Shown here: piece by piece, positions 6,182 through 63,896 of the stretch
Position numbering within the stretch: position 1 is the first letter of the stretch
How the letters are laid out: each line of letters starts with the position of its first letter
Source of the DNA: an uncultured Gemmatimonadaceae bacterium
GTDB lineage: Bacteria; Gemmatimonadota; Gemmatimonadetes; Gemmatimonadales; Gemmatimonadaceae
Length of the DNA: 64,000 nucleotides
Direction of reading: 5' to 3'
NCBI GenBank assembly: GCA_963781585.1
Contig: CAWAGQ010000004.1
Location: 768,001-832,000 of the forward strand
Translations under genes and position numbers: made by a program
The notes under the pieces: generated by a model
The model's input: only the letters and a program-made list of their open reading frames with translations
Told to the model about the DNA's origin: nothing
Databases searched by the model: none

Positions 6182-7813
6182 GTGCCTGAACGCTACCTCG
6201 GCCAATCGTTCGGCAAGTACCAGATCGAGAGCCTGATCGGGTCTGGCGGCTTCGCCTGGGTCTTCAAGGGGTATGACCCGGAGCTCGAAATCCCGGTCGC
6301 CATCAAGGTGCTGAAGCCGCAGTTCGCCGGCGATCCCATCCTGGTTGATCGATTCCGGCGCGAGGCATCGACGGCCGCCAAGCTCCGGCACCCGAACATC
6401 ATCAAGATCTACGCGGTGGGCCGGGAGCGGGACGCCGTGTATTTCGTGATGGACTACCTGCCCACGGGGCTCGCCGACAAGCTCGAGGCGACCAGCACCC
6501 TGCCCGAGGATTACGTGGTGCGGGTCGGGATCGATGTGGCGCGGGCACTCGGGTTCGCCCACCGCGAAGGGGTGATTCACCGGGACATCAAGGTGGACAA
6601 CATCCTGTTCGACGCCCACGGCAACGCGGTGGTCGCCGATTTCGGCATCGCCCGCGCGGTGAGCGGCTATACCCAGCACACCGGCACCAACATGGTGGTG
6701 GGGACGCCGCAGTACTTCGCGCCGGAGCAGGCCCGGGCCAAGCCGCTCGATGGCCGGGCGGACATCTACTCGTTAGGCGTCACGTTGTACCGGGCGGCTA
6801 CTGGCCGCCTCCCGTTCGAGGGCGATGACTGGTACGAAATCGCCCGGCAGCACGTGGAGGACCCCCCTCCCCATCCACGCACCATCGTCCCGGATCTGTC
6901 ACCCGAGTTCGAACGCGTGGTGCTGTGGTGCCTTGGCAAGCAGCCTGATGACCGCCCGGCAACCGGCGATGCGCTGGCCGAAGCATTGGAGGCGCTCCGG
7001 GCGGTCCATCGCGACCCGACCCTCGCGCGGACCCTCTCGGTCCCGCTCTCGCTGACTCCCACGCTCGTCGCACCCGTCCCGGCCGTGGCGGTGAGGACCA
7101 GGCCGAAGCGTGGTGTCAACTCCACCACCGTGGCGCTCGCGATCTTTGCGGTGCTCATGGGCGGGGCGTTCATGGCGCCCCGGGTCTACCACTGGATGGC
7201 GACAGGGAGAGGCGCGGGGAGTACCGTGGACACGAGTCTGTTGCAGGCCCCCGTGGTCGTCTCCGATACCGGCGCGCCGGATTCACAGAAGACGGCGGTA
7301 CCCACCGGGCCCGTCGCCCGCGATACGACCGCGTCGCTGGTGCTGACGTCGTATCCGGACGCGACCCTCAGGTTCAACGGCGATACCGTGGGCAGCGGGG
7401 GCACCTGGCGCACCGATACGCAGCGCCCCGGCACCTACGTTGCCGTGGCGACCGTGCCGTCCGCCGCGCCGTGTCCCAGTGCGCGCGACACCGCGGTGGT
7501 GAACCTGCGGGCCGGGGCACCGCCCGTGAAGGTGACGCTCCACCCGCACAGTTGCGGCACCTTGCAGCTCATGGCGCTGGTGCGGAACGCCAACACGAAC
7601 ACCAGCGTCGAGTACGTGCTCACCTCCCTCGATGGGAAGCGGTTCACCGGCCCGGTGACCGTGGGGACGCGACAGGAGATCGTGCTGCCGCCGGGCCAGT
7701 ACCAGCTCGACGTCACGAAGCCGGTCTGCGCGTCCTACCACGAAGCGTCGGTGACAATCAGCTCCAACACCGTGACCAACCTGCCGACGTTCACCATCGA
7801 CTGCGGCGGTTGA
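6182..7813 (+). CDS. Hanks-type Ser/Thr protein kinase with a TM helix and extracytoplasmic beta-rich (PEGA-like) domains
   Basis: [28 protein letters not shown] and [11 protein letters not shown] segment [16 protein letters not shown]. Start at GTG 6182 is inferred. Confidence 0.92.
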
Positions 7814-7907
7814 CGTCGCGGCGGCGCGCTCGCGGTGCCCGACCGCACCGCGGCGATCGAGGCGGATCATTTACCAACGATCTGCAGGGTGTCGGAAGTG
7901 GCGGCCG

Positions 7908-8288
7908 CTATGGTCGTACCACGGCGCCTAACGCGAATCCGACGGCCAGGCCGCCCCAGAAGTAGAGCCGCTTGAACCAGGGGCGCCGGGGCTCCTCGAG
8001 GATGACCCACTGGTCGGTGGTCAGGCGGGTGGTCTGGCCGATGATCAGTGCCGTGGCGACGCCCCGGTCGACGGAGATCACGCGGAGCCGTGCCACGAGC
8101 GCGTCGCGGTGCAACGGGTCCACGGCAAGGCCGGTGAGGTCGCGGTGCACCCAGCCTTCGGTGCCCACGGTGAAGGTGACCGTGGTGTCGCCCACCTGCG
8201 AAATCTCGAACCGGACGCCCTTGACCTGTGCCCCGAGCGTTGCGCCAGACCCGGCGAGCAGTGCCACCGCGAGCAGGAATTGGCGCAT
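7908..8288 (-). CDS. Hypothetical exported protein with a C-terminal TM anchor
   Basis: Signal peptide MRQFLLAVALLAG and a hydrophobic C-terminus LYFWGGLAVGFALGAVV. Confidence 0.75.
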   Translation of the reverse strand: MRQFLLAVALLAGSGATLGAQVKGVRFEISQVGDTTVTFTVGTEGWVHRDLTGLAVDPLHRDALVARLRVISVDRGVATALIIGQTTRLTTDQWVILEEPRRPWFKRLYFWGGLAVGFALGAVVRP

Positions 8289-8444
8289 CGAACGGAGGGG
8301 TTGAAGGCGTACGACGAGGCCGCGTCGGCGGAACGGTCTGCAGGTGGGGGAACGCGTCCAGGTGACAGGGTCAGGGCCGATGGGCCGCGCCGGCCGGCCG
8401 CACCGGTCGCCAGGCCGTGCGCGAAGGGCCGCGCGGGCGATCGA

Positions 8445-9712
8445 TCAGCCGAACAGCTTCACCAGCCCCTTGAGATCATTGAGCATCACGAGCGCGAACA
8501 GCAGCGCGATCGCGACCAGACCGGCCCGAAGAATATACTCGCGCGTGCGAGCGCTGAAGGCACTGCCCTTGATCGCTTCGGCCAGGTTCAGGAGGATCTG
8601 GCCCCCGTCGAGGATCGGGATAGGGAGAAGGTTGAGGATGGCCACGTTGATGCTGAGGAATGCAATGAGCGACAGCAGAGTCTCGAGGCCCGAACGGGCC
8701 GCCTCGACCGACGACCGCGCGATCTGGATCGGGCCGCCCAGCTGGGTGACCGAAACCTGCCCCGACACCAGCCCGACGATCACCTGAACGACACTCCCCC
8801 CCATCGCCACCGTGGCGTGCCAGCCGGCGGCGACCGACGACGCCGGCGTTAGGCGTTCGCTCAGTACCCTGGTGGTCGAGTAGGCGCCGATCTTCGGCAC
8901 CTGCACCGGGCGCCCGGTCACCAGGTTGGTGTCGGGCGCCAGCTGCGGCACCATGTGCAGCGTCACGCGCTCACCACGGCGCATCACGTCCAGCTCGAGG
9001 ACCTTCCCCTGCGACTGCGCGATCTGGGCGGTCACGTCCGACCACCGGCTTCACCGGCAGTCCGTTGACCGCCACGATGCTGTCGGCCGCCATCATGCCG
9101 GCGCGATCGGCCGGGAGTCCGGCCAGCACCGAATCCACCACCGGCGGGCGATATGGTCGACCGTACGCCGCAAAGAGTCCCACCGACACCACCAGCGTGA
9201 GCACCGCGTTCATCGTGACGCCGGCAAACAGAATGATCAGACGCGCCCACAACGGCCTTCGATTCGAACCACCGGTTGGGCGGAACCGGCCGCGGCCCGA
9301 ACGGCACCATGGCGTTGGGGTCCCAGTCCGCACGGGCGCTTCGCTCCCCGGACGCCCTGGGCAGCGCTCGGCCTGGGTCGCGCCGGAGTCCCTGTCTGCG
9401 GACGCCGTCGGGCAGCGCGGTGTAGTCGAGCGCTTCACCCGGGCGGGGCGCCCCCACCTTCACCTCACTCCCGCCTTCGAGAAACGCCATCGCCTCGTCT
9501 TCGCGCGAGGCCATGCGCACGTAGCCGCCGATCGGGAGCCAGCCGATGAGGTACTCGGTCTCGCCGTGGCGCCGCTTCCAGAGCGCGCGACCAAAGCCGA
9601 TGGAGAACCGCGGGGCGTAGACACCCAGCAGCTTGGCGGCCATGAAGTGCCCGAGCTCGTGCACCAGCACCACGAGGCCGAAGACGAGAACCGGCGCGAA
9701 CCAGCTCAGCAT
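8445..9712 (-). CDS. rseP: RIP metalloprotease RseP, apparently frameshifted near 9260 and 9050
   Basis: HELGH, FSIGFG and LPIGGYVRM in one frame; RLIILFAGVTMN and the PDZ start in a second; GGPIQI and NLLPIPILDGG in a third. Confidence 0.9.
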
Positions 9713-11698: not shown

Positions 11699-11710
11699 GC
11701 GTCAAGCCAC

Positions 11711-12455: not shown

Positions 12456-12480
12456 CGCCCGCACCGGATTCGGCGTCGTC

Positions 12481-15844: not shown

Positions 15845-16243
15845 CTACCGCTTGCTGAACTGGAATCGCTTCCTGGCTCCCGGGCGCCCCGGCTTCTTCC
15901 GCTCCACGGTCCGGGCATCGCGGGTGAGGAGGCCGAGGTCGCGCAGCTTGCGCCGATGAACCTCGTCGACAAGCACCAGCGCCCGGGCTGCCGCCAGCCG
16001 CAGCGCGCCCGCCTGTCCGGCCTGTCCCCCGCCCTCCACCCGCGCTTTCACGTCAAACCGTCCGAGCGTGTCGGTGGCGGTGAACGGCTGCTGGATCGCC
16101 GAAACGAGCGCCGGCCGCGGGAAGTAGTCGCCTAACGTGCGACCGTTGATGTCCCACTTGCCCGAACCGGGACGGAGGTACAGACGGCAGACCGACTCCT
16201 TGCGCCGTCCCACGGCGTGAATGGGGGTACTCTCAGGCATCAC
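15845..16243 (-). CDS. rpsI: 30S ribosomal protein S9
   Basis: [17 protein letters not shown] and [19 protein letters not shown]. Confidence 0.98.
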
Positions 16244-18581: not shown

Positions 18582-18584
18582 TGC

Positions 18585-20084
18585 CTAACGAAGTGCCTCG
18601 CGCCGCGCCGCCTCGCGCCAGGCATCGGCGGCCGGCGCTTCGGCCGGCGCGGCGCCGTTGCCGGTTCCGCGATCGGCGTGCGCGAGAAGTGCCGCTGTCA
18701 GGGCCGCGAGGCGCTTCTCGGCAGTCGGGGCGCCGCCGTCGGCAAAGTCCGGCAGCCGTCGCTCCAGCCACTGGCTGTCGAACGCCCCGCTGCGAAACTC
18801 CGGCGCCTCGAGCACCCGGAGATGAAACTCGCGCGAGCTCTCCACGCCCACGATGCGCAGTTCGCGCAGGGCCCGCTGCATCCGGCGGATCGCCTGATCG
18901 CGGGTGGACGCCCAGGCAATGAGCTTGCCGAGCAGAGAGTCGTAGTGCAGACCGACATGTGTCCCGGTCTCGATCGCGCCATCCCATCGCACCCCCGGCC
19001 CCGCCGGCAGGCGCAGGTACTCGATCTGCCCGGTGGACGGGAGAAATCCGGACCGCGGGTCTTCGGCGGTGATGCGGCATTCGATCGCGCATCCGCGCGG
19101 CTCGAGGGTCGCCGGCAGCGTCACCCGCGCACCCTCGGCAATGCGAATCTGCCATTGCACGAGATCGATGCCGGTCACCATTTCCGTCACCGGATGTTCC
19201 ACCTGGAGACGGGTGTTCATTTCCAGGAAGTAGAACTGGCCCTGCCGGTCGAGCAGGAACTCGCAGGTGCCGGCGTTGACGTAGCCCGCGGCGCGCGCGG
19301 CGGCGACCGCCGTCTCTCCCATCCGGCGCCGGAGCACCGGAGTGACCGCGACGCTCGGCGCCTCCTCCAGCATCTTCTGGTGGCGCCGCTGGAGCGAGCA
19401 CTCGCGTTCACCCAGCGACACCACGCCGCCGTGCCGGTCGGCCAGTATCTGGATCTCCACGTGACGCGGGCCATCCAGGTACTTCTCGACATAGACCGCG
19501 TCGTCGCCGAACGCGTTGCGCGCCTCGCGTCGCGCGGCATCGAGGGCCGGTGGGAGATCGGCGGCTCGTTCGACGAGGCGCATCCCCTTCCCGCCGCCAC
19601 CGGCGGCCGCTTTCAGCAGAACGGGGTAGCCGAAGCGCTCGGCGGCGGACGTCGCGTCGTCGGCGTCACGCACGTTGTGCGTGGTTCCCGGTACCAGCGG
19701 AACGCCGGCCCGTCGGGCGAGCAGTCTCGCAGTCGTCTTGTCGCCCAGGCTGGCGATGGCCTCGGGAGGAGGACCGATCCAGACGATACCGCTGTCCCGC
19801 ACCTGCCGCGCAAAGGCCGCACGCTCCGACAGAAAGCCGTATCCGGGATGAATGGCGTCGGCCTTCGCGGCAAGGGCCGCTTCCACGATCCGATCGCCAC
19901 GAAGGTAGCTCTCGCTCGAAGGCGCCGGCCCGATGTGGACGGCTTCGTCGGCTGCCCGGACATGAGGTGCGGCTGCGTCGGCATCCGAGTATACCGCCAC
20001 CGAGGCGATCCCGAGCTCCCGGCAGGCGCGAATCACCCGCACCGCGATCTCTCCCCGGTTGGCGACCAGGATCTTCCTGAACAT
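18585..20084 (-). CDS. accC: Biotin carboxylase subunit
   Basis: KILVANRGEIA, HPGYGFLSE, GGGGKGMR, ERECSLQRRHQK and EMNTRLQVEHPVTE. Confidence 0.95.
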   Translation of the reverse strand: MFRKILVANRGEIAVRVIRACRELGIASVAVYSDADAAAPHVRAADEAVHIGPAPSSESYLRGDRIVEAALAAKADAIHPGYGFLSERAAFARQVRDSGIVWIGPPPEAIASLGDKTTARLLARRAGVPLVPGTTHNVRDADDATSAAERFGYPVLLKAAAGGGGKGMRLVERAADLPPALDAARREARNAFGDDAVYVEKYLDGPRHVEIQILADRHGGVVSLGERECSLQRRHQKMLEEAPSVAVTPVLRRRMGETAVAAARAAGYVNAGTCEFLLDRQGQFYFLEMNTRLQVEHPVTEMVTGIDLVQWQIRIAEGARVTLPATLEPRGCAIECRITAEDPRSGFLPSTGQIEYLRLPAGPGVRWDGAIETGTHVGLHYDSLLGKLIAWASTRDQAIRRMQRALRELRIVGVESSREFHLRVLEAPEFRSGAFDSQWLERRLPDFADGGAPTAEKRLAALTAALLAHADRGTGNGAAPAEAPAADAWREAARREALR

Positions 20085-20109: not shown

Positions 20110-21660
20110 CTAGAGAGGGATGTTGCCATGCTTCTTGGGCGGATTCCGGTCGCGCTTGCCCTGCAGCATCTCGAGCGCGTCGATGAGACGGGGCCGCGTG
20201 TCACGCGGGTCGATGATGTCGTCCACGTAGCCGCGTGACGCGGCAACGTACGGATTCGCGAACTTGTCCGTGTACTCCGTGACCCGCTCGTCGGTGGCCG
20301 CCTGCGGATCCGCGCTGTCGGCGAGCTCCTTGCGGAAGAGAATCTCCACCGCACCCTTCGGTCCCATCACCGCGATCTCCGCCGAGGGCCAGGCCACATT
20401 GTAGTCCCCCCGGATGTGCTTGGAGCTCATCACGTCGTACGCGCCACCATAGGCCTTGCGGGTGATCACGGTCAGCTTCGGAACCGTGGCCTCGCAGTAG
20501 GCGAACAACAGTTTGGCGCCCTGGCGGATGATGCCGCCGTGTTCCTGCGCCACGCCGGGGAGGAACCCCGGTACATCCTCGAACGTCACCAGCGGAATGT
20601 TGAAGGCGTCGCAGAACCGTACGAAGCGGGCGCCCTTGACCGAGGCGTTGATGTCGAGCACGCCGGCCAGCACTGCCGGCTGATTGGCGATGATCCCGAC
20701 GCTGTGTCCGCCGAGATGGGCGAACCCGCAGATGATGTTGCCGGCGAACTCGCGGTGAATCTCGAAGAACGCACCGTCGTCCACCACCGCCCGGATCACG
20801 TTGTGCATGTCGTACGGCTTGCTGGGATGGTCGGGCACGATGTCGAGCAGTGCGTCATCCCGCCGCGTGCGGGGATCGGTGCCGGGGCCGCGCGGCGGAT
20901 CCCCCAGGTTGTTGGACGGGAGGTAGCGCAGCAGCGCGCGGATCTGCTGCAGGCAGTCCGCCTCCGAGTCGCAGGCCACGTGGGCCACCCCCGACGTGGC
21001 GGCGTGGGTGTCCGCGCCTCCGAGTTGTTCCATCGTGACGTCTTCGTGGGTCACGGTCTTCACCACGTTCGGCCCGGTCACGAACATGTACGAGGTGCCG
21101 CGGACCATGAACACGAAATCGGTGATGGCCGGGGAATAGACCGCGCCGCCGGCGCACGGGCCGAGAATCGCGGAGATCTGGGGTACCACCCCCGACGCCA
21201 GCGTGTTGCGGAGGAAGATGTCGGCATAGCCGCCTAACGAGACGACGCCCTCCTGGATACGCGCTCCACCGGAGTCGTTCAACCCGATCACCGGGGCGCC
21301 CGACCGCACCGCCAGATCCATGACCTTGCAGATCTTCTCCGCGAAGGCCTCGGACAGCGAACCGCCGAAGACGGTGAAGTCCTGGGAGAACGCGAACACC
21401 AGCCGTCCGTCGATGCGCCCATGCCCGGTCACCACCCCGTCGCCATAGTACTTCTGGTCGGCGAGACCGAAGTCGGTGCTGCGATGGGTCACGAACCGGT
21501 CGAGCTCGACGAACGACCCGTCATCGAGCAGGAGATCGAGCCGCTCCCGCGCCGAGAGCTTGCCCTTGCCGTGCTGCGCCGCGACGCGTTCGGGGCCGCC
21601 TCCCTGCTCCGATTCCTCACGCCGCTGTCGCAGCAGATCGAGCTTCTCGCGCATGGTCAT
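20110..21660 (-). CDS. pccB: Acyl-CoA carboxylase carboxyltransferase (propionyl-/methylmalonyl-CoA type beta chain)
   Basis: [38 protein letters not shown] and KKHGNIPL. Confidence 0.92.
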
Positions 21661-27142: not shown

Positions 27143-28412
27143 GCGCCAGGTCCCGCCAGAAATCGGGGTACGACACGCCCACGCATTCGGGATCGTCCAC
27201 GACGATGTCGCAGTTCGCCGAGGCCCCGAGCACGCCGAAGGCCATGGCCAGGCGGTGATCGCCCCGGGTGCGCACCTGTCCGCGCAGCGGCGCACGGGTG
27301 CCCTGGATCCGCATCCCGTCAGGCAGCTCGTCGGCCTCCACGCCAATGGCGCGCAGCCCGGCGACCACCCCGCCGATCCGATCGCTCTCCTTCACGCGCA
27401 GTTCGCCGGCCCCGCGGATGACCGTCTCCCCGTCGGCGCGCGCGGCGACGCACGCCAGCACCGGCAATTCGTCGATCATCGACGCCACGCCGGCGGGGCC
27501 AATCGCGGTGGCCCGCAACGGAGCGGGGCGCACCACCAGGTCGCCGGCCGGTTCGGCCGGGTCGGGCTGCGCCGCGGTCATATCAATGGATGCGCCCATC
27601 CGGCGCAGCACCTCGAGGAATCCCGTGCGCCCGGGGTTCAGGCCGACGTTGCGCAGCACGACCTCGCCGCCGTCGGCCAGTGCGCCTAACGCGGCGAAGA
27701 ACGCCGCGGCCGAGGGATCGCCCGGGACGTCGAGCGTGAACGGTTCCAGTTCGGCTCCCGGCCGGAGCGTGATGCGTCCGGCCACCGCCGATACGTCGGC
27801 ACCGAGCGTCCGCAGGAAACGCTCGGTGTGATCGCGTGTGGGAGACGGTTCGATCACCACCACCTCGACCCCGGCGCAGAAGCCGGCCAGCAGCACCGCG
27901 CTTTTCACCTGGGCGCTGGCGGTCTCCATCCGCCACTCGATGCCACGCAGGGCGCCGCCGTGGATGGTGAGCGGAAGCCCGTCCCAGCCGGACGCGGAGT
28001 CGACCTGCGCGCCCAGCTCCGCCAGCGCCGCGGTCACCCGCCGCATCGGGCGGCGGCTCAGGCTCGCGTCGCCGGTGAAGGTGGACGCGAAGGGCTGCGC
28101 CGCCATCACGCCCATCATCAGACGCGCGGTGGTGCCGCTGTTGCCGCAGTAGAGGTCCGCGTCCGGCGCTCGGAGTCCATGACGGCCCCGGCCCGCGATC
28201 CGGAGGTCCGCGGCCAGCGCCGGAACCTCGACGCCTGACGAGCGGAGCACGCGGGCGGTCGACTCGAGATCGTCGGAGCGGAGCACGTCGCGCACCCGCG
28301 ACGTCCCGTGAGCCAGCGCTGCGAAGATCAGGCTTCGGTGCGAGATCGATTTATCCCCGGGAACGCGAACCTCCCCGCGCACCACCAGCCGGTCGGTCCC
28401 CACCGCCGTCAC
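27129..28412 (-). CDS. aroA: EPSP synthase
   Basis: PGDKSISHR, CGNSGTTAR, SAQVKSA, RDHTE, ELRVKESDR and DHRLAM. Confidence 0.97.
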   Translation of the reverse strand: MTAVGTDRLVVRGEVRVPGDKSISHRSLIFAALAHGTSRVRDVLRSDDLESTARVLRSSGVEVPALAADLRIAGRGRHGLRAPDADLYCGNSGTTARLMMGVMAAQPFASTFTGDASLSRRPMRRVTAALAELGAQVDSASGWDGLPLTIHGGALRGIEWRMETASAQVKSAVLLAGFCAGVEVVVIEPSPTRDHTERFLRTLGADVSAVAGRITLRPGAELEPFTLDVPGDPSAAAFFAALGALADGGEVVLRNVGLNPGRTGFLEVLRRMGASIDMTAAQPDPAEPAGDLVVRPAPLRATAIGPAGVASMIDELPVLACVAARADGETVIRGAGELRVKESDRIGGVVAGLRAIGVEADELPDGMRIQGTRAPLRGQVRTRGDHRLAMAFGVLGASANCDIVVDDPECVGVSYPDFWRDLARVIA

Positions 28413-39517: not shown

Positions 39518-39607
39518 AAACACAAAACGGCGGACCGCAATCGATCGAAGCGAAGACACCACGTCGCATCGTCGATCCACCGTCCACCGTTTCCCGTCAC
39601 ACCGAAG

Positions 39608-44664: not shown

Positions 44665-44724
44665 GCATTCGTCAGGCTGGCGTTAGGCAGTCGTGAGGCG
44701 CTCGTCAGGCGCTCGTCAGGCGGC
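44648..44724 (+). repeat. Seven 11-bp tandem units, consensus CGT(C/T)AGGC-NNN
   Basis: Units start at 44648, 44659, 44670, 44681, 44692, 44703 and 44714. Confidence 0.9.
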
Positions 44725-46540: not shown

Positions 46541-47391
46541 CAGTCGCGCACGTCGTCGCCGATGGTCCCCCAGCCCAGCTTGCGCCGCATTCGCGAGAAG
46601 AACGTCACCTCGGGGAAGCGCACCAGCAGTACCGGCCGCGCCGCCTTGCGCACCGTGAGCGATTCGGCTCCGCCTAACGTGGTGCCGACCTGGCCGTCGA
46701 CGGTGACCAGCGAGTCGCTGTCCTCGCCGGCGTGCACCACCACCGTGGCCTGGGGGCCGAGCACCAGCGGGCGGACGGCCAGCGCATGCGCCGAGATCGG
46801 GGTGACGATGATGGAGTCGTGCCCCGGCACCACGATCGGACCGCCTGCCGAGAGGCTGTAGGCGGTGGACCCGGTGGGAGTGGAGAGCACGATCCCGTCG
46901 GCCGCGAATGTCGCGATCGTCTCGCCATCGATCTCCAGCCGCGTGTGCATCACGCGCGCCTTGCCGCCCTTGTGCAGCACCACGTCGTTCAGCGCGTACC
47001 AGCAGCGGGCGGCCTGGGCCACGGACGGAAAGGCCTCGAGCGCCATCCGGGTGTCGGCGCGAAAGTCCCCCGCCACGAAGCGGCGCAGGCCGGTCTCCAT
47101 TTCGTCGCCGCCACAGGAAGTGAGGAATCCCAGCCGGCCGAGATTGATGCCGAGGATGGGGACGCTGCGTCCCGCGAGCAGACGTGCGCCGCGCAGCAGC
47201 GTCCCGTCGCCGCCCAGGGTCATCAGGAGATCGACCTGGTCGGCGTCGAGCAGGGGAGTCGTGGACGTCCCCTGCAGATCGGTCTCGAACGACAGGTTCG
47301 CCCCCACCGCCGGCGCCACGCGCTGCAGCCGGTCGAGGATGGCCGGCAGTCCGGCGTAGTCGCGATTGCCGATGACGCCGATTCGCGTCAC
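46540..47391 (-). CDS. nadK: NAD+ kinase
   Basis: LGGDGTLL, GINLGRLGFL, ALND and STPTGSTAYSLSAGGP. Confidence 0.96.
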   Translation of the reverse strand: MTRIGVIGNRDYAGLPAILDRLQRVAPAVGANLSFETDLQGTSTTPLLDADQVDLLMTLGGDGTLLRGARLLAGRSVPILGINLGRLGFLTSCGGDEMETGLRRFVAGDFRADTRMALEAFPSVAQAARCWYALNDVVLHKGGKARVMHTRLEIDGETIATFAADGIVLSTPTGSTAYSLSAGGPIVVPGHDSIIVTPISAHALAVRPLVLGPQATVVVHAGEDSDSLVTVDGQVGTTLGGAESLTVRKAARPVLLVRFPEVTFFSRMRRKLGWGTIGDDVRD

Positions 47392-49268
47392 CCGGTGAGC
47401 GCCTCGCTCTCGCGCAGCGCGCGCACGCGGTCCGCGATGCCGGCGGCATCGAGACCGGTCGCCGCCAGTTGCCGCGCCCGCGGTGCGGCGGGGATGATCC
47501 GGTCGGGGACCCCGTGCGCCACCACGCGGACCGTGTGGTCGAGCCGCTCCACCTCCGCCGCGATCATCGCCCCGAAGCCGTTCACCACCGTCCCCTCCTC
47601 CACCACCAGCAGCGAACGATGATCGGCCACCAGGGCCGCGAGCGTGAGCGTGTCATACGGCTTCAGGAAGCGGCAGTTGACCACAGTGATGTCGAACCCT
47701 TCCCCAGCCAGGGCCGACGCTGCGTCGAGCGACGGCAGCACCATCGTGCCGACGCCGAGGATGGCGATCTCGCTGCCTTTGCGCAGCACCTCCCAGGTCC
47801 CTTCCGGCACGGCCGGGATCTCCGCCATCGCCGGCGGCACGTCGGGCGCCGCCGCGCGAGGATAGCGGAGCGCGAACGGCCCCCCACGGTGGCGGATCGC
47901 GGTCTTCAGAAGCCCGAGCATCTCGGCCGCGTCCTTCGGGGCGGTCACGGTCATATTCGGCACCGCCAGCATGTACGCGATGTCGTAGAGGCCCATGTGG
48001 GTCTCGCCGTCCTCCCCCACCAGGCCCGCGCGATCGAGACAGAACGTCACGGGCAGCCGCTGGATCGCGACATCGTGAATGATGCTGTCGTAGGCGCGTT
48101 GCAGGAACGTCGAATAGATGGCGGCCACCGGCCGCACGCCACGCGTGGCCAGGCCCGCGGCGAACGTCACCGCGTGCGCCTCGGCGATGCCCACGTCGAA
48201 GAAGCGCGTGGGGTGCTTCTCGGCCACGGCGTCGGTGCCGGTGCCACTCGGCATCGCCGCGGTAATGGCGACCACGTCGCGTTCTTCGTTCATCAACTCC
48301 ACCAGCCCGCGACCGAACACCTTCGTGTAGTTGGGATTCGCGGTCGAGGTCTTGCGCTGCTTGCCGGTGGCCGGGTCGTGACCAGGTGGCAGCGCGTGCC
48401 ACTTCTCCACGTGCTCGCCGGCGGGGAATCCCTTCCCCTTCTGCGTCACCACGTGCACCAGGCGCGGTCCGTGCATCGAGCGGACGGCCGAGAAGGTGTC
48501 CAGCAGCTGATCGATGTCGTGTCCGTCGATCGGTCCGAAGTACCGGAAGCCCAGCTCCTCGAACAGCACCCCCGGCGTCAGAAACGACTTGACGCTCTCC
48601 TCCCACTTCCGCACCAGCGTGCTGAGCGCCGGGCGTCCCTGCACCACCTCGCCGATCCTGGCGCGCACCCGGTTGTAGAGCGGGTTCCGCTGCACCGAGT
48701 TCAGGTACTTGGAGATCGCTCCCACGTTAGGCGCGATCGACATCTCGTTGTCGTTCAACACGACGATGATGTCGCGCCCGGAGTGGCCGGCGTTGTTCAG
48801 CCCTTCGTAGGCGAGCCCGCAGGTCAGGGCGCCGTCCCCGACCACCGCCACCACGCGATACGACTCGCCCAGCACGTCGCGTCCGGCCGCCATCCCCAGG
48901 GCCGCCGAGATGGCCGTCCCGGCGTGTCCCGCGCCGAACGCGTCGTACTCGCTCTCGCTGCGCTTGAGGAAGCCGGAGAGCCCGCCTTCCTGACGCAGCG
49001 ATTCCATGCGCTCGTTGCGGCCGGTCAGGACCTTGTGGGGATACCCCTGGTGGCCCACGTCCCACACCAGCTGGTCGCGCGGCGTGTCGAACGCGGTGTG
49101 GAGCGCGATCGTCAGCTCCACCACACCGAGCCCGGCGCCGATGTGTCCGCCGGTGCGCGAGCAGACATCGATCAGTCGCTGCCGGATCTCCGGCGCCAGC
49201 GCCCGCAGCTCCTCGCGCGTCAGCGCGCGCAGGTCGTCGGCTCCGTGAATGCGATCGAGGATGGGCAT
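47388..49268 (-). CDS. dxs: 1-deoxy-D-xylulose-5-phosphate synthase
   Basis: WDVGHQGYPHK, GDGALT..E.LNN, FDVGIAEAHA and DRAGLVGEDGETH. Confidence 0.97.
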   Translation of the reverse strand: MPILDRIHGADDLRALTREELRALAPEIRQRLIDVCSRTGGHIGAGLGVVELTIALHTAFDTPRDQLVWDVGHQGYPHKVLTGRNERMESLRQEGGLSGFLKRSESEYDAFGAGHAGTAISAALGMAAGRDVLGESYRVVAVVGDGALTCGLAYEGLNNAGHSGRDIIVVLNDNEMSIAPNVGAISKYLNSVQRNPLYNRVRARIGEVVQGRPALSTLVRKWEESVKSFLTPGVLFEELGFRYFGPIDGHDIDQLLDTFSAVRSMHGPRLVHVVTQKGKGFPAGEHVEKWHALPPGHDPATGKQRKTSTANPNYTKVFGRGLVELMNEERDVVAITAAMPSGTGTDAVAEKHPTRFFDVGIAEAHAVTFAAGLATRGVRPVAAIYSTFLQRAYDSIIHDVAIQRLPVTFCLDRAGLVGEDGETHMGLYDIAYMLAVPNMTVTAPKDAAEMLGLLKTAIRHRGGPFALRYPRAAAPDVPPAMAEIPAVPEGTWEVLRKGSEIAILGVGTMVLPSLDAASALAGEGFDITVVNCRFLKPYDTLTLAALVADHRSLLVVEEGTVVNGFGAMIAAEVERLDHTVRVVAHGVPDRIIPAAPRARQLAATGLDAAGIADRVRALRESEALTG

Positions 49269-52634: not shown

Positions 52635-54227
52635 TCAGCGCGCAAATTCCACCGCCCTCGTCTCGCGGATGACGACGATCTTGATCTGACCTGGGTATTG
52701 CAGCTCGCCCTCGATGCGGCGCGCGATCTCGTCGGATAGTGACGTCATCCGGGCGTCATCGACGACCTCGGGGGTCACGATCACCCGCACTTCGCGCCCT
52801 GCCTGGATCGCGTAGACCTTCTCGACTCCGCGATACGCCGACGCGATCCGCTCGATTCCCTCCAGACGCTTCACGTAGGTCTCGAACGCTTCGCGGCGCG
52901 CTCCGGGGCGCGAACCCGAGATCGCGTCCGCCGCCTGCACCAGAACCGACAGCTCGCTCTCGTGCGGGACGTCGCCGTGATGCGCCGCTATGCAGTTCAC
53001 CACCAGCGGGTGCTCGCCATACCTGGTGGCGACTTCCACCCCGAGCTGCACGTGGGTGCCCTCGTGCTCGTGGGTGAGCACCTTGCCGATGTCGTGCAGC
53101 AGCGCGCCGCGCTTGGCCATCGGCACGTCGAGCCCCAGTTCGGCCGCCATGATGCCGGTGAGCCAGGCGACTTCCTTGGAGTGGTCGAGGATGTTCTGCC
53201 CGTAGCTCGTGCGCCACTTCATGCGGCCCACGAGTTTGGTCAGTTCCGCGTGCAGTCCGTGGATGCCGGTCTCGTAGGCCGCCTGCTCGCCGAGCTCCAC
53301 GATCTGCTGGTCCACTTCCTTGCGCGCCTTGGCGACGACCTCCTCGATGCGTCCCGGGTGAATCCGGCCGTCGGTGACGAGCTTCTCCAGCGCCAGACGC
53401 GCCACCTCGCGGCGCACCGGATCGAATGTCGAGACGACCACCGTGTCGGGAGTGTCGTCGATGATGACGTCGACTCCGGTGGCCAGCTCGAATGCCCGGA
53501 TGTTCCGCCCTTCCCGGCCGATGATCCGTCCCTTCATCTCGTCGTTAGGCAGGGACACCGCCGAGACCGTGATCTCGGCCGTGTGCTCGGCGGCCACGCG
53601 CTGCACGGCGAGCGACACGATCTTTCTGGCCTCCCGTTCGGCGTCTCGCTTGGCGCTCTCCCGGATCTCGCGAAGGCGATTGGCCGCGTCCGCCTCCGCT
53701 TCCTTTTCCAGCCGCTGCATCAGCTCCTGCTTGGCCTGTTCCGCCGAGAGCCCCGCCAGCGCCTCCAGCCGCCGGCGTTCATCGGCGATCATGTGGTCGA
53801 GCTCCTGTTCCCGCTCGGCGACCGACTTTTCACGCCGACCGAGATCGCTGGCGCGCTTGCCCAGTTCGCGTTCCCGTTGATCGAGGAGGTCGAACTTCTT
53901 GTCGAGCTGGCCTTCGCGCTCATCGGCGCGGCGCTCCTCGCGCTCGACTTCATCGCGGCGGTGGCGGGCCTCCACCTCCCACGCCTCCCGGAGCTTGATC
54001 AGCTCTTCCTTCCCGGCAATGACGGCGCTCTTGCGCAGTCCTTCAGCCTCGCGCTCGGCATCTCCGACAATGCGGCGGGAGGTCTCTTCGGCGGTGGACT
54101 TGGTGGCGGCCTGGCGCGCGATCTCGGCAGTTCGACCGGCGCGGCGGCCCAGAACAAAGAAAGCCGCGGAGGCGCCGACCGCGAGCGCGCCGAGAACCGC
54201 GGCTACGAGAGTAGCGTTGAGACCCAT
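52635..54227 (-). CDS. rny: Ribonuclease Y
   Basis: N-terminal TM, coiled coil, KH domain ([14 protein letters not shown]), HD domain (LLHDIGK) and [12 protein letters not shown]. Confidence 0.97.
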
Positions 54228-55050: not shown

Positions 55051-57472
55051 CCAGTTCGCTCTCGAGATTCCTGAGGATTTTCTGCCGCCGCCCTTCGATT
55101 TCCTTCTCGCGTAGAGTGCGTGCCGGATCGCGGAACGTCAACGTCCAGGCCAGGCTGCGATAGCCGGCCGGCAGTTCGTCGCCGCGGTATTCGTCGAACA
55201 GCATCAGGCGCTCCAGCAGGTCGCCGGCCGCGGCCCGGACCACCCGCTCCACATCCGCGGCGCGGATGCCGGCCGGCAGCAGCAGGGCCAGATCGATCTC
55301 GGCCGGGGGCGTGGTGGGAAGCGGCCGGAATGGTGCGGAGCGGCCGCGCGGGATGCGTTCCGGCCCCGGGCGGTGGGCGTGCGCGCCGGGGCCGGCGACG
55401 AACGCGTTAGGCATCACTCCGAGCGTGACCTCCACGCCGAACGCCGGAGACGCCCACGGCGGACTGTCCAGCACCATCCGCTGCACGCGTCCCAGGGGCC
55501 GCCCATCGGGCCGGCCGGCGATCGTCCACAGGGCGTCGTCGGCGCTCTCGACCAGCTCCGCGCCGCCGGGATGGGCGAGCGCCGCCAGGCGCTCACCCAG
55601 CGCCTTCGCGTCCCACACGTCGAAGGCCGGTGGTGCGGGCTCGGTGAAGTGCGCGGGCCGACGGCTTCCCATGATCAGCGCGCCCACCCGGACCTCCTCG
55701 TGCGGCAGCGCTCCGGCGCCGGGGCGGAACGTCGACCCGATCTCGAAGATGCGCACATTCCCCTGCCTGCGGCTGAGATTGTACTCCGCCCGTCGCGCGA
55801 GGGTCTCGAGCAGCGAGACGCGCAGGTGCGGCTCGTCGTCGGCCAGCGGATTCCGCACCCGCACGTGGGTCCCGTCGCTCCCGCGCACGAATGGCATCGG
55901 GCGCACTTCCACCAGTCCGTCACCGACCAGCGCGTCGCGGATGCGCCGGCCCAGCAGATACAGCGGATGGTCGGGCACGGTGCCGGGGCGGAACGGCTGG
56001 ACCACATCGGACAGCCGGTCGTATCCGCGCAGGCGGGCGACCTCTTCCAGCAGGTCCGCGTCACGAGTGACGTCGTTGCGCCAGCTGGGCGCGTATACTA
56101 CCAGCCGCTCATCGTCCTCGAGCGAGACCTCGAATCCAACCGAGCGCAGGAGCCGCGCCACCTCGTCTCCGCTCACCTGGTCGCCCAGCAACCGCGACAC
56201 GCGGCTGGGCCGCACCACCACCGCCGGCGGGGCGGCCGGCACCGCACCCACGTCGATCGGGGCGCCGTCCACCCGCCCGCCCGCCACCGCCTCCAGCAGT
56301 CGCGCCGCGCTCGCCAGCGCGCCGGGCGGCAGTTCGGGATCGACGCCCCGTTCGAATCGATAGCTCGCATCGGTGGAGATGCCTAACGCCCGCCGCGCGG
56401 CCCGAACGGCGGGCGGCGAGAAACAGGCCACCTCCAGGAACAGGTCGGTGGTCTGCGCGGTCACTTCGCTGTCATGGCCGCCGATGACCCCGGCCACGGC
56501 GATCGCGCGCGCCGCATCCGCTATCACAGTCGTGCGATCGTCGAGCGTGCGCTCCACCCCGTCGAGTGTCACCAGCCGCTCGCCCTGCTGCGCTTTGCGC
56601 ACGATCACCCGCGCCCCCTCGAGCCGACCCAGGTCGAAGGCGTGCATCGGCTGTCCGTATCCGTGCACGAAATAATTGGTCACGTCGACCACGTTGTTGA
56701 TCGACCGCAGACCCACCGATTCGAGGCGCCGCACCAGCCACCCGGGGCTCGGGCCCACCGCGACCCCGCGCAGCACCAGACCCATGTAGCGCGGACATCC
56801 GGCGCGATCGTCCACGCGCACCGTGACGCCGCCGCTCATGCTCTCGCGCTCGTGCAGCACCGGGGCGGGAAGAAGCAACGGCGCCGTGTCTTCCAGCTCG
56901 GGCGGGTCCCGCCGCGGAATCAGCGTCAGCGCCGACAGCTCGCGCGCCATCCCCAGGTGCGAGAGCAGATCGGGGCGATTGGGGAGCACGTCGACATCGA
57001 AGCGCACGTCGCCAACCGCGATCGCCTCCAGGAGCGGCGTACCCGGCGGCACGTCCACCGCCAGCGACATGATCCCGGCGTGGTCCTCTCCCAGCAGCAG
57101 TTCCCGCGCCGAGCACAGCATCCCGTTCGAAACCACGCCGCGGATCTTCCGCTTCTCGATCTTCACGCCGCCGGGAAGCGCGTCGCCCACCCGGGCGAAC
57201 GGATACAGCGCCCCGGCGGTCACGTTCGGCGCCCCGCACACGACTTCGAGCAGGGTCCCGCTTCCGTCATCCACCCGCGTCAGCCAGAGGTGGTCCGACT
57301 GAGGGTGCCGCGCGGCTTCGACCACGCGCGCCACCACCACCGCCGCCAGGTCCTGCCGCAGCCGGTCCATGCGATCCACCGTGGCGACGTGCGCCGAGAG
57401 GAGGTCGCGGACCGCCTCGGGAGAGAGGTCGTGGGGAACGAACGCGCGCAGCCACTCGTGTGAAACGAGCAT
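55028..57472 (-). CDS. pheT: Phenylalanyl-tRNA synthetase beta subunit
   Basis: VVCGAPN, SNGMLCS, PNRPDLLSH, TDASYRFERG, DLLEEVAR and a C-terminal FDX-ACB domain. Confidence 0.97.
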   Translation of the reverse strand: MLVSHEWLRAFVPHDLSPEAVRDLLSAHVATVDRMDRLRQDLAAVVVARVVEAARHPQSDHLWLTRVDDGSGTLLEVVCGAPNVTAGALYPFARVGDALPGGVKIEKRKIRGVVSNGMLCSARELLLGEDHAGIMSLAVDVPPGTPLLEAIAVGDVRFDVDVLPNRPDLLSHLGMARELSALTLIPRRDPPELEDTAPLLLPAPVLHERESMSGGVTVRVDDRAGCPRYMGLVLRGVAVGPSPGWLVRRLESVGLRSINNVVDVTNYFVHGYGQPMHAFDLGRLEGARVIVRKAQQGERLVTLDGVERTLDDRTTVIADAARAIAVAGVIGGHDSEVTAQTTDLFLEVACFSPPAVRAARRALGISTDASYRFERGVDPELPPGALASAARLLEAVAGGRVDGAPIDVGAVPAAPPAVVVRPSRVSRLLGDQVSGDEVARLLRSVGFEVSLEDDERLVVYAPSWRNDVTRDADLLEEVARLRGYDRLSDVVQPFRPGTVPDHPLYLLGRRIRDALVGDGLVEVRPMPFVRGSDGTHVRVRNPLADDEPHLRVSLLETLARRAEYNLSRRQGNVRIFEIGSTFRPGAGALPHEEVRVGALIMGSRRPAHFTEPAPPAFDVWDAKALGERLAALAHPGGAELVESADDALWTIAGRPDGRPLGRVQRMVLDSPPWASPAFGVEVTLGVMPNAFVAGPGAHAHRPGPERIPRGRSAPFRPLPTTPPAEIDLALLLPAGIRAADVERVVRAAAGDLLERLMLFDEYRGDELPAGYRSLAWTLTFRDPARTLREKEIEGRRQKILRNLESELGVRPRTA

Positions 57473-58500
57473 CAGCCGAATTGCGCGAGGAAGCGCAGGT
57501 CGGAGTCGTACAGCAGGCGGATGTCGGGAATCCCGTAGCGCGACATGGCGATCCGGCCGGGCCCCATGCCGAACGCCCACCCCGAATAGCGCTCGCTGTC
57601 GAGGCCCGCGTTTTCGAGCACCGCCGGGTGGACGAGTCCACACCCCAGGATCTCCATCCACCGCGGGCCGGCTCCGTCGCCAAGGTCCACCTCCACTTCC
57701 ATCTGGGCCGAAGGCTCGGTGAACGGGAAATACGACGGGCCGAATCGCGTCCGCGTCCCCGGCCCGTAGAACCGCCGGGCGAACAGCGTCAGCATCGCCT
57801 TCAGGTCGGCGAACGAGATCCCCTCGTCGATCGCCAGTCCCTCCAGCTGCGAGAACACCGGCGCGTGGGTGGCGTCGAAGAAGTCGCGCCGGTACACGTT
57901 GCCCGGAGCGAGGATCCGGATCGGCGGCGCGTACGTCTGCATGGTGCGCATCTGCACCGGCGATGTATGCGTGCGCAGCAGCGTGTCATCGCCGAGGTAG
58001 AGGGTGTCGTGCATGTCCATCGCCGGGTGATCGGCCGGGAAGTTGAGTCCGCCGAAGTTGTACCACTCGTGCTCGGCCTCCGGGCCTAACGCGACGGTGA
58101 AGCCGAGCTCCCGGAACATGTCGCAGATCTCGTCGATCACGATCGAGATCGGGTGCAGCGACCCGCGCCAGGTGGCGCGTCCCGGCATCGTGGGGTCGAT
58201 CTCGTCGCCCGAGGCGGCGCTCGCCAGCAGGCGTGACCGTGCTCCCTCATACGCCGCCTCGAGCGCGGTCCTCACCTGGTTGAAGCGCTGCCCGGCCTCG
58301 CGCCGGTCCGCGGGCGGCAGGCTTCCCAGCTTCGCGCCCAGGTGCGTCAGCGCCCCGCTCGCCCTGCCGAGCAGGGCGACCCGCGCCTCCTCGAGCGCGT
58401 CCAGCGACCCGGCCGCCGGGAAAAGCGCGGTCCCCCGCGACTCGATCTGCTCGAGCGCGTCGGCGAACGCGGGCAGGTTGTGGAGAGGAGCGTCGGTCAC
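57472..58500 (-). CDS. pheS: Phenylalanyl-tRNA synthetase alpha subunit
   Basis: HPAMDMHDT, LRTHTSPVQ, YFPFTEPS and GWAFGMG. Confidence 0.97.
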   Translation of the reverse strand: MTDAPLHNLPAFADALEQIESRGTALFPAAGSLDALEEARVALLGRASGALTHLGAKLGSLPPADRREAGQRFNQVRTALEAAYEGARSRLLASAASGDEIDPTMPGRATWRGSLHPISIVIDEICDMFRELGFTVALGPEAEHEWYNFGGLNFPADHPAMDMHDTLYLGDDTLLRTHTSPVQMRTMQTYAPPIRILAPGNVYRRDFFDATHAPVFSQLEGLAIDEGISFADLKAMLTLFARRFYGPGTRTRFGPSYFPFTEPSAQMEVEVDLGDGAGPRWMEILGCGLVHPAVLENAGLDSERYSGWAFGMGPGRIAMSRYGIPDIRLLYDSDLRFLAQFG

Positions 58501-63106: not shown

Positions 63107-63190
63107 CAGGCCAGAGATCATAGGCCAAAGGTCGTAGGCCAAAGGTGATAGGGCGAAGGGCATGGGCCAACGGTGACAGGCCAAAGGTCA
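63107..63190. repeat. Six degenerate 14-bp tandem units, consensus TAGGCCAAAGGTCA
   Basis: Units start at 63107, 63121, 63135, 63149, 63163 and 63177. Confidence 0.85.
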
Positions 63191-63239
63191 TGGCAGGCCT
63201 GTCCACCATGGGCTTCCCCCTCGGACCCGCTGAGCTAAC

Positions 63240-63257
63240 TTGTGAATGAATTCACAA
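63240..63257. promoter_or_regulatory. Rex operator
   Basis: TTGTGAATGAATTCACAA is a perfect TTGTGAA-N4-TTCACAA, directly upstream of rex. Confidence 0.9.
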
Positions 63258-63269
63258 GCTCGGCCTGCC

Positions 63270-63896
63270 GTGAAGCGTATTGCAGACAGTACGGTGCGCC
63301 GCCTTTCGGCGTACCTCCGTTTCCTCGAGGAAACGGGGCAACGGAACATCCCGACCATTTCCAGCGAAGAGCTGGCCAGACGTGGCGGGACTACGTCCGC
63401 CCAGGTGCGGAAGGACCTCTCCTTCTTCGGGTCCTTTGGGAAACGCGGCCTGGGCTATTCCGTTGCCGAACTCACCGGGAGCCTGCGCGGAATCCTCGGA
63501 CTGCATCGCGAGTGGAACGTGATCATCGTGGGCGCCGGCAAGATCGGCACCGCGCTCGCCCAGTACCATGGATTCGCCCAACGCGGGTTTCGCGTATCAG
63601 CCGCGTACGACACCGATCCGCGCAAGATCGGGTCGCAGTGGGACTCGGTCATTGTCCGCGACGCTGCCGACGTGGAGCGCGACGTCGCGCGGGAGAAGCC
63701 CGACATCGCCGTGCTGGCCGTACCCCCCGACCAGGCGCAGGCGGCCGCCGAGCGTCTGGTGCGTGCCGGCATCAAGGCTATCCTCAATTTCGCCCCAACC
63801 AGCATCCAGGTGCCTAACGACGTCAGCGTGCGCACGGTCAACATGGCCATGGAGCTGGAAGGTCTGAGCTTTACGCTCACCAACCGCGACCGCTGA
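63270..63896 (+). CDS. rex: Redox-sensing transcriptional repressor Rex
   Basis: TVRRLSAY, QVRKDLSFFGSFGKRGLGY, GAGKIG and ILNFAP. Start is GTG 63270 or ATG 63246. Confidence 0.96.
   Translation: MKRIADSTVRRLSAYLRFLEETGQRNIPTISSEELARRGGTTSAQVRKDLSFFGSFGKRGLGYSVAELTGSLRGILGLHREWNVIIVGAGKIGTALAQYHGFAQRGFRVSAAYDTDPRKIGSQWDSVIVRDAADVERDVAREKPDIAVLAVPPDQAQAAAERLVRAGIKAILNFAPTSIQVPNDVSVRTVNMAMELEGLSFTLTNRDR

Follow-up and report, generated by a model that had tools for sequence, protein, structure and literature searches.

Short words repeated about once per kilobase (kb) are known from few bacterial groups, namely the Neisseriaceae, the Pasteurellaceae and the cyanobacteria, and in the last of these the word is the highly iterated palindrome HIP1, GCGATCGC. 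In the first two groups, the words are the DNA uptake sequences (DUS) of the Neisseriaceae, which are read by the minor pilin ComP, and the uptake signal sequences (USS) of the Pasteurellaceae. Short signals of another kind are found in integrons, whose attC sites are described with the boxes R'' (5'-RYYYAAC-3') and R' (5'-GTTRRRY-3'); the R'' of the aadB attC is GCCTAAC, and the integrase IntI1 binds the double-stranded attI1 at four sites (PMC12901181). Standard primers for attC sites are HS287 TCSGCTKGARCGAMTTGTTAGVC and HS286 GCSGCTKANCTCVRRCGTTAGSC (PMC2669170), and integrons are reported from Gemmatimonadota (PMC8618304). A stretch of 64,000 nucleotides from an uncultured Gemmatimonadaceae bacterium (assembly GCA_963781585.1, contig CAWAGQ010000004.1, positions 768,001 to 832,000), called the window here, adds a soil phylum to the groups with such words. 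The octamer GCCTAACG/CGTTAGGC, hereafter the word, is a genuine genomic signal specific to certain lineages within the Gemmatimonadaceae. Its origin is tentatively attributed below to a molecular drive like that of uptake sequences, and it is identical to a part of the integron attC site.

The window holds 24 exact copies of the word, GCCTAACG standing on the + strand 17 times and on the - strand seven times, and the recount matched exactly the number and the coordinates listed in an earlier examination of the letters alone (the sequence-only reading). Dinucleotide-preserving shuffles of the window (n=100) gave a mean of 0.95 copies (standard deviation 0.87, maximum 3), none of the 100 reaching 24, while an order-3 Markov model expects 0.77 and ranks the octamer far above all other 8-mers in over-representation. 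There are 24 occurrences each of the hexamers TTAGGC, GTTAGG and CGTTAG, so that every one of them lies inside an octamer, as had been claimed for GTTAGG. Conservation does not extend into the flanks (C precedes 13 of the 24 copies, G never follows at +1), and the unit is therefore 8 bases long.

Gene calling with a purpose-made codon model gave 58 open reading frames (ORFs) with approximate boundaries, which make up 92% of the window and contain 22 of the copies. Synonymous shuffling that preserved both the proteins and the codon usage left a mean of 0.41 in-gene copies (maximum 4 in 1000), and dicodon resampling of the window genes, with a pair table derived from the window itself and the motif copies left in, gave a mean of 1.95 (maximum 6 in 300), so the enrichment survives both nulls. 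The word is read as NCG-TTA-GGC in 16 copies, as CCT-AAC in five, as CTA-ACG in one and as a CGT-TAG stop in one, and one copy is intergenic. The same frames had been assigned by the sequence-only reading and were reproduced with the independent gene calls; likewise its gene names (rpsI, rpsA, pheS, pheT, recN, dxs, rny, rex, rseP and accC) agree with NCBIfam. TTA accounts for 17 of the 1866 Leu codons of the window and is essentially confined to the word, being used in 16 of 53 [ASTP]-Leu-Gly contexts vs 1 of 1813 other Leu codons.

Relatives were collected by searching the window AroA in contigs of one genome per species, a collection from which the window's own genome is absent. All AroA relatives are at most 62% identical, and the closest are all metagenome-assembled genomes (MAGs) of Gemmatimonadaceae, in agreement with the phylum Gemmatimonadota guessed by the sequence-only reading. 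The word is enriched in 13 of the relative loci, each of 2.5-21 kb and from several independent assemblies, with the following copies per locus: L001 7, L002 12, L003 7, L004 4, L005 6, L006 9, L008 9, L009 6, L010 3, L011 15, L012 2, L016 6 and L017 16. Other Gemmatimonadota and other phyla have 0-2 copies per locus. Together, the 14 positive sources (13 loci and the window) amount to 229,213 bases with 126 copies, against 5 copies in the 245,863 bases of the 15 motif-poor Gemmatimonadota loci; since this split was made from the copy counts themselves, the negative set serves mainly as a null for codon context. A tblastn search against plasmids led to the cultured isolate Gemmatirosa kalamazoonensis KBS708, whose plasmid 1, examined whole, has 777 copies in 1,106,233 bases (374 and 403 by strand), which is 0.70 per kb at a G+C content of 72.7%. 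Two 50-kb samples of its plasmid 2 contained 20 and 30 copies. The presence of the word in independently sequenced relatives, both the 13 MAG loci and plasmid 1, joins the nulls and the confinement of TTA in supporting what the sequence-only reading had proposed, a lineage-specific signal on the DNA and not on the protein, with an unknown reader.

In the AroA tree, which has weakly supported deep forks and from which L042 was dropped as a 38-residue fragment, the positive sources fall into three groups, one of nine including the window, one of L002, L006, L008 and L009, and one of L016. L007 is the well-supported sister of the motif-positive L016, yet it is without the word.

The features are collected in the table.

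Table. Copies of the word in the window, with neighbouring tRNA genes, the 11-bp array and the integron of Gemmatirosa plasmid 1. For copies of the word, the strand is that on which GCCTAACG stands; the strand of the gene is given in brackets, and L001 to L017 are relative loci.
Feature	Position	Strand	Gene or place	Reading and remarks
Word	6771..6778	-	Ser/Thr kinase gene, 5825-7813 (+)	TCG-TTA-GGC (S-L-G)
Word	7926..7933	+	unnamed ORF, 7908-8288 (-)	GCG-TTA-GGC
Word	8847..8854	-	rseP fragment, 8445-9035 (-)	CGC-CTA-ACG
Word	16130..16137	+	rpsI (-)	ACG-TTA-GGC; ACG-CTC-GGC in motif-less relatives, same T-L-G
Word	18583..18590	+	accC-like ORF, 18585-20084 (-)	TAG of the word is the stop codon
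Word	21232..21239	+	carboxyltransferase gene, 20110-21660 (-)	TCG-TTA-GGC; common to L001
Word	25370..25377	+	rpsA (-)	TCG-TTA-GGC; common to L001, L003, L004
Word	27684..27691	+	aroA (-)	GCG-TTA-GGC; A-L-G, amino acid changed to fit the word
Word	29569..29576	+	dapA (-)	GCG-TTA-GGC; common to L011, L017
Word	31601..31608	+	aspartate kinase gene (-)	GCG-TTA-GGC; common to 5 other genomes
Word	32344..32351	+	asd (-)	GCG-TTA-GGC; common to L011, L017
Word	37252..37259	-	amidohydrolase gene, 36948-38534 (+)	GCG-TTA-GGC
Word	37760..37767	+	amidohydrolase gene, 36948-38534 (+)	CAG-CCT-AAC-GTG; in 6/6 aligned motif-positive genomes
Word	40602..40609	+	galK-like gene (-)	TCG-TTA-GGC
Word	41030..41037	+	unnamed gene, 41018-42805 (-)	GCG-TTA-GGC
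Word	44681..44688	-	intergenic, within the 11-bp array	
Word	45500..45507	+	recN (-)	ACG-TTA-GGC
Word	46672..46679	+	NAD kinase gene (-)	ACG-TTA-GGC
Word	48725..48732	-	dxs (-)	GCG-CCT-AAC-GTG
Word	53543..53550	-	rny (-)	CTG-CCT-AAC-GAC
Word	55405..55412	-	pheT (-)	ATG-CCT-AAC-GCG
Word	56381..56388	+	pheT (-)	GCG-TTA-GGC
Word	58084..58091	+	pheS (-)	GCG-TTA-GGC
Word	63812..63819	+	rex (+)	GTG-CCT-AAC-GAC
tRNA-Leu(UAA)	39433..39518	-		decodes the TTA used by 16 copies
tRNA-Gly(GCC)	39607-39680	-	adjoins tRNA-Leu(UAA)	decodes GGC
11-bp array	44648..44721	-		7 units, exact 11-bp period; GCCT-N-ACG and a 3-bp free spacer
intI	856827-857786	same as ~72 small ORFs	Gemmatirosa plasmid 1, end of the cassette array	
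Large sedentary integron	~810.9-857.8 kb		Gemmatirosa plasmid 1 (L097:20900-50000, L098:1-17800)	homogeneous attC of ~95 nt

Orthologues from 31 Gemmatimonadota sources were aligned (groups with fewer than four members were dropped, and L040, with a G+C content below 0.6, was excluded), and the alignments contain 38 distinct motif positions. At most of these, [ASTP]-Leu-Gly is conserved in the motif-less relatives and is coded there as NCG-CTC/CTG-GGC, from which it follows that the word was made by a two-step synonymous change of CTS to TTA. The positions are shared patchily among lineages, which implies turnover and parallel gain. Amino-acid changes are seen at aroA columns 265 and 315, asd column 204 and cmk column 103. 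For example, the window has A-L-G at aroA column 265, where 25 of 28 other aligned genomes have A-L-A or C-L-A (A-L-G is found in three, V-A-A in one, and L042 has a gap); in the window only, this residue was changed to fit the word. Likewise, of the 16 genomes aligned at asd column 204, 10 have I-L-G (the window has I-L-A, and one other has I-I-G), and six show x-L-G together with the word.

The occupancy of suitable contexts is high. Of the [ASTP]LG contexts, 79 of 233 carry the word in the positive sources (73/205 and 6/28) vs 1 of 216 in the negative ones, and for xPN[AVDEG] the counts are 33 of 45 (19/28 and 14/17) vs 1 of 25. On Gemmatirosa plasmid 1, 310 of 1296 [ASTP]LG and 187 of 335 xPN[AVDEG] contexts are occupied, and across the data the range is 24-36% for [ASTP]-Leu-Gly and 50-82% for Pro-Asn. 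Among the TTA codons of plasmid 1 outside the integron cassettes described below, 310 of 402 lie inside the word; so do 53 of the 89 TAA stops (60%) and 42 of the 178 TAG stops outside the integron. Outside the integron, coding DNA has 0.57 copies per kb, against 1.68 for positions that are not wholly within a called gene; for fully intergenic stretches the value is 0.96. The 172 non-integron plasmid copies that are not fully in called genes were also inspected for a longer motif, and they show no extended consensus, with C preceding the word in 56% of them.

These data bear on the readings in which the word is not a DNA signal at all, such as a watermark, a translational device built on TTA-GGC, or a modified motif that was systematically miscalled. 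Frameshift-like breaks in rseP, dxr, cdsA and uppS indicate that the sequence quality of the window is imperfect, and the window has the genes for tRNA-Leu(UAA) and tRNA-Gly(GCC) next to each other. E. coli has a Gly(GCC)-Cys-Leu(UAA) tRNA operon, and the pairing in the window may thus be simply ancestral. Against these readings stands the enrichment of the word in 13 MAG loci, which come from several studies, and in a finished replicon of an isolate. The residues conserved at the sites are Leu and Gly, which shows that the bases were not miscalled; the independent assemblies and the conserved Leu-Gly together refute both the artefact and the planted reading. A signal at the level of RNA or codons is excluded because the opposite orientation is filled as well: the word is driven equally as CCT-AAC, in stop codons and in spacers. 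This whole group of readings is so improbable that it hardly enters the comparison.

The word is also kept for long periods. Among pairs of genomes with more than 300 four-fold sites, those whose four-fold sites are near saturation (identity ~0.5) share 4-6 of 5-9 word sites, where about 1 is the neutral expectation; for instance, L002 shares 6 of 8-9 sites with each of L006, L008 and L009, and L001 and L003 share 4 of 5. By this comparison the word is kept longer than synonymous sites last. One-base variants are enriched solely at the outer positions, namely CGTTAGGT (22 vs 0.9), TGTTAGGC (10 vs 0) and CGTTAGGG (10 vs 1.9), and in the pooled sources there is no enrichment of one-base neighbours, the mutational intermediates, at the inner positions. 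L010, L011 and L017 combine a strict GTTAGG core with relaxed flanks, and there are 31 such cores per ~11.5 kb in L011 and L017. The one-off variant GCCTGACG is the top 8-mer of L007 (10 vs 0.8); it is raised in L014 too and in the window (17 vs 4), where four of the copies are within the 11-bp array. It was considered as a second universal form and rejected as lineage-dependent, since its 132 copies on Gemmatirosa plasmid 1 are at background level, and it may be a dialect or a decay product.

Lineage specificity, variants and a patchy distribution would fit the gain and loss of a mobile enzyme gene, which is what a HIP1-like reading supposes: a bias linked to repair or methylation, for example a correction of the very-short-patch type toward the site of a methyltransferase, would drive and keep the word without any uptake. 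The octamer is hyper-abundant in coding and non-coding DNA and is conserved beyond the synonymous expectation, as this reading requires, and the lack of enrichment among inner one-step neighbours fits a process that acts on a single mismatch beside an otherwise perfect site. On the other hand, the word is not palindromic, neither a methyltransferase gene nor a Vsr-like gene was seen in the window, and the identity with attC would be left unexplained. We know of no established mechanism for HIP1 itself, and the analogy names a phenomenon more than a mechanism. We regard it as unlikely.

The distribution over strands has to be considered with regard to Chi and to the FtsK-orienting polar sequences (KOPS). 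The - strand of the window is gene-rich and G-rich, and CGTTAGGC lies on it in 17 of the 24 copies. Over the 14 positive sources, the form of the word on the coding strand varies with gene orientation (76:21 vs 6:14, p=5e-5), a comparison that counts many of the same orthologous sites in several genomes. With the coding context fixed, the strand effect is not significant, neither pooled (p=0.20 and 0.49) nor in the window (p=0.47 and 1.0). On plasmid 1, [ASTP]LG occupancy is 137/572 in genes of the + strand and 173/724 in genes of the - strand (odds ratio 1.00), and ten region-by-strand cells do not differ (chi-square p=0.27 for [ASTP]LG, 0.83 for xPN). The GC skew of plasmid 1 is weak and its replichores are thus not sharply defined; nevertheless, no region or strand departs from the rest. 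The imbalance of 17:7 is explained by gene orientation together with the larger number of Leu-Gly than of Pro-Asn contexts. We conclude that the word lacks the polarity of KOPS, and that if there is any polarity like that of Chi, it is no more than a side effect of gene orientation. The Chi/KOPS-like polarity that the 17:7 ratio could suggest to the sequence-only reading, real as a raw skew, therefore does not hold. A word of which one strand is read by RecBCD/AddAB or FtsK and which is selected in the core genome would still agree with an 8-mer that abounds in core genes but is scarce in mobile cassettes, and recN and xseAB are present in the window. However, skews above 80% as for KOPS are not reached, and the filling of 50-82% of cheap contexts and 60% of TAA stops goes far beyond any Chi known to us, which makes this account very unlikely.

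A constraint on the word outside any reading frame is shown by the array in the window, which lies between the convergent genes 42904-44664 (+) and recN (-) and is spaced at one helical turn. Six of its units are GCCT-N-ACG with N = G, G, C, A, G and G; in the other unit, GCCTAGCG, the TAG of the + strand terminates the upstream gene. The 3-bp spacers differ among the units: deviations from the column majority affect 1 of 49 fixed octamer positions vs 8 of 18 spacer positions (Fisher p=5e-5). The array would suit a bound protein, or else slippage on which the same drive as elsewhere then acted. No gene for a reader was recognised beside it, the neighbours being a predicted signal-peptide protein and two proteins without a Pfam or NCBIfam family, and no other such array was found in the window and 80 related loci, the Gemmatirosa plasmids not having been scanned. 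A different 11-bp unit (TGCGTCATAAC-like) forms 6.5 copies at L002 12205-12282, in the spacer after cmk, with two 13-bp arrays nearby; the last unit is replaced by the word. Since the unit differs and merely ends in the word, this array was rejected as a relative of the one in the window.

The phasing at 11 bp, with octamers conserved and spacers free, would suit the binding site of an abundant nucleoid-organising protein, maintained by ordinary selection for site density. The conservation of sites over long times is in agreement with this, as is a spacing of the window copies slightly evener than random (coefficient of variation 0.73 vs 0.96, p=0.07; 0.88 on the plasmid). Yet selection on single sites would be too weak to recode hundreds of places, each in two steps, to a very rare codon and to change amino acids, the array is single in the loci scanned, and its fifth base is mostly G where the genome-wide fifth base is A. 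A nucleoid protein is accordingly a quite unlikely explanation.

The sequence-only reading had stated that the word matches no known signal, and this part has to be withdrawn. The word is the inverse core and core of the integron attC, conforming to RYYYAAC / GTTRRRY in all seven positions when inspected against the consensus as given in PMC12901181, and from the primer sequence it equals the last 8 bases of HS286 (3' end, CGTTAGSC) with S=G. Gemmatirosa plasmid 1 carries an integron of its own. At 814-847 kb there is a cluster of inverted word pairs 88-90 bp apart, in a region where ~72 small ORFs share a strand. The region also has no fewer than 16 imperfect palindromes, ~95 nt long, that start with GGCCTAACG and end with CGTTAGGCC. 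One of them, folded as a single strand, is predicted to form an attC-like structure with paired ends and a bulged stem (-35.4 kcal/mol, z=-5.0). The intI gene matches TIGR02249 with 423 bits against a cut-off of 265 (E=8e-127). An attC fold and a cassette array adjacent to intI were found solely for these plasmid 1 elements.

The cassettes provide recently acquired DNA in which depletion of the word could be measured, as the sequence-only reading had envisaged. Their ORFs are nearly free of it, with 0 of 34 [ASTP]LG contexts occupied vs 310 of 1262 elsewhere on plasmid 1 (p=1.3e-4), and they hold 3 copies in 28 kb against 16 expected (P=9e-5). The genome-wide process thus acts on long-resident DNA; the word accumulates in permissive places and is missing from newly acquired genes, as is the case for DUS and USS. 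Of the TAA stops of cassette ORFs, 9 of 30 lie in the attC inverse core. As the word is missing from the cassette ORFs but present at their attC ends, the ends did not receive it from the genome-wide process and carry it for integron reasons. Conversely, the window copies were rejected as attC sites: they stand alone, no two of them closer than 428 bp, and in frame at conserved codons, with no partner box, no hairpin and no flanking palindrome of 60-140 nt.

It is nevertheless conceivable, if rather unlikely, that the reader is a tyrosine recombinase of the integron-integrase/Xer family or a DNA-binding protein derived from one, and that the word is its double-stranded R box. The genomic copies would then be docking sites or sites like attG or attI, and the 11-bp array a platform for cooperative binding. 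The fit of the word to R'' and R' over all seven positions of the boxes as described (PMC12901181) is in its favour, as are the IntI encoded on plasmid 1 beside cassettes and attC that end in the full octamer, the presence of the word at the attC ends of cassettes whose ORFs are without it, and the helical phasing of the window array with its free spacers. On the contrary, no known activity of a recombinase turns near-matches into matches or creates its own sites, processes of a cleavage type tend to remove their sites, and good insertion sites in essential genes should be harmful and selected against. IntI-mediated insertion into genomes is described as needing only GWT and as avoiding essential genes (bioRxiv 10.1101/2022.09.11.507474). 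Both the array and the dialect of L007 and L014 alter the GTT triplet (to GTC and GTG), which is the part most needed by IntI, and a tblastn search of the window and of the 80 loci, which cover little of each genome, detected no homologue of IntI.

The best explanation of the whole pattern, by analogy, is an uptake-sequence-like molecular drive, to which we assign a probability of roughly 0.35. A directional process on double-stranded DNA, indifferent to orientation, would write the word into resident DNA wherever coding allows, that is, at [ASTP]-Leu-Gly (NCG-CTS-GGC to NCG-TTA-GGC), at Pro-Asn, in stop codons and in spacers, and would retain it beyond the lifetime of synonymous sites. We infer that a competent cell would preferentially bind and import DNA that bears the word, and that homologous replacement would then spread the word-bearing alleles within the limits of protein tolerance; the attC repeats of large sedentary integrons may have seeded the preference or may share its reader. 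Biased uptake followed by replacement is the only mechanism known to us that gives the whole pattern, and it is ranked first for this reason. Eight of the features, including both orientations, bent proteins and dialects, are described for DUS and USS (PMC2817400, PMC2346458 and PMC3630211).

Several points weigh against the uptake explanation. The distribution in the family is patchy, with at least three separate positive groups and several Gemmatimonadaceae lineages without the word. No competence gene, pilin or receptor was recognised among the window genes, beyond which no wider search was made, and no paper was found that links Gemmatimonas with natural competence. Inverted pairs of the terminator type, a trait of the Neisseria DUS, are not a feature of plasmid 1 outside the integron, and an 8-mer is shorter than the known uptake signals. 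Uptake alone, moreover, leaves unexplained both the identity of the word with the integron R box and the exact 11-bp phasing of the window array.

The genome-wide word and the integron may share one reader or one history, a proposal that we consider doubtful and that could take two forms. Either an IntI-family protein would bind thousands of chromosomal R boxes, the genome being a docking field and a possible source of cassettes, or an uptake receptor would have gained its specificity on attC ends as the most repeated self sequence, after which the genome was rewritten to match. Either form, if true, would be the first tie between integron recombination sites and a chromosome-wide signal, and the identity with the attC core makes such a link testable.

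Some further observations were made on the same sequences. Between ~9000 and 12500 of the window (-), rseP, dxr, cdsA and uppS are each in pieces, with frame switches within the gene that were recognised from a frame plot of G+C at third codon positions and from ORF ends that read as out-of-frame text. These indels in 3.5 kb of essential genes lie inside the longest motif-free gap (8855-16129), and the region could be a sequence error, a low-coverage patch or a mis-join. Between arcA and rex, a 14-bp unit (AGGCCAAAGGTCAT-like) stands in six tandem copies (63108-63191), followed at ~63240-63257 by an inverted repeat, ttgtgaa-n4-ttcacaa, which we take to resemble the Rex operator. Over-represented 8-mers unrelated to the word include CGAATCTC and overlapping words (11-15 times) in L016, GTCTGACC/GTCAGACA (6-7 times) in L003 and the AGCGACTAGC type (5 times) in L001. 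Short tandem repeats of GGTTAGG(G) occur in three motif-poor Gemmatimonadales genomes, directly after aroA (10001-11269) at ~11317-11330 in L024 and L025, and at ~9117-9130 in L042, ~870 bases upstream of the aroA match (10001-11270). On Gemmatirosa plasmid 1, identical stretches at ~9.6-22 and 62.6-75 kb are 53,060 bp apart (three motif-context pairs were checked) and the first two 50-kb bins have equal coding totals, which suggests a large direct duplication.

Hyper-abundant short genomic words are known already as a kind; the novelty lies in the phylum and the word, in the recourse to stop codons and to a codon otherwise almost never used, and in the identity with an integron core site. No paper was found with either octamer as a whole word (supplements lay outside the search) or with Gemmatimonadetes paired with 'DNA uptake sequence', and none among the matches listed links Gemmatirosa with the octamer. 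The effect is strong enough to impose an almost forbidden codon, to decide which stop is used and to fix some amino acids, and it thus offers a clean system for the question of drive vs selection, and the cultured carrier G. kalamazoonensis KBS708 lets the reader be sought. There may be practical consequences as well. Ordinary Gemmatimonadaceae genes may be caught by attC finders and by polymerase chain reaction surveys with attC primers that end in the word; one survey is reported to have retained only 19-24% of attC-primer amplicons after attC filtering (bioRxiv 10.1101/2021.09.08.459516). In these genomes, the word could also mark bins and recently acquired DNA.

Compared with the known systems, the word resembles Chi (RecBCD/AddAB) and KOPS or the SpoIIIE recognition sequences (FtsK/SpoIIIE) in being short, non-palindromic and over-represented in core DNA, but it has no polarity once the coding context is controlled, and its enrichment and its saturation of contexts are far stronger. 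With HIP1 it shares the form of an octamer at about one copy per kb in genes and spacers, the lineage specificity, the variants, the unknown reader and a conservation beyond codon expectation, the last of which was measured here; unlike HIP1, it is not its own reverse complement, it belongs to another phylum and it is shared with integron sites. Its GCCTAAC and GTTAGGC are identical to the attC inverse core and core, with the flanking G/C as in HS286, whereas the 24 copies of the window are single and in frame in housekeeping genes, with no intI nearby. From DUS and USS it differs in phylum and word, in having 8 bases instead of 9-12, in its patchiness within the family, in the lack of terminator-type inverted pairs outside the integron, in being the core of a recombination site and in being known from sequence alone. 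In other respects it resembles DUS and USS as described (PMC2817400, PMC2346458 and PMC3630211): there are hundreds to thousands of copies in both orientations, at ~0.4-2.7 per kb, with preferred frames that are limited by an in-word stop and with peptides bent to fit; the copies are denser in non-coding DNA and missing from genes without long residence; and the word appears to be common to related genera, with single-base dialects around a strict inner core.

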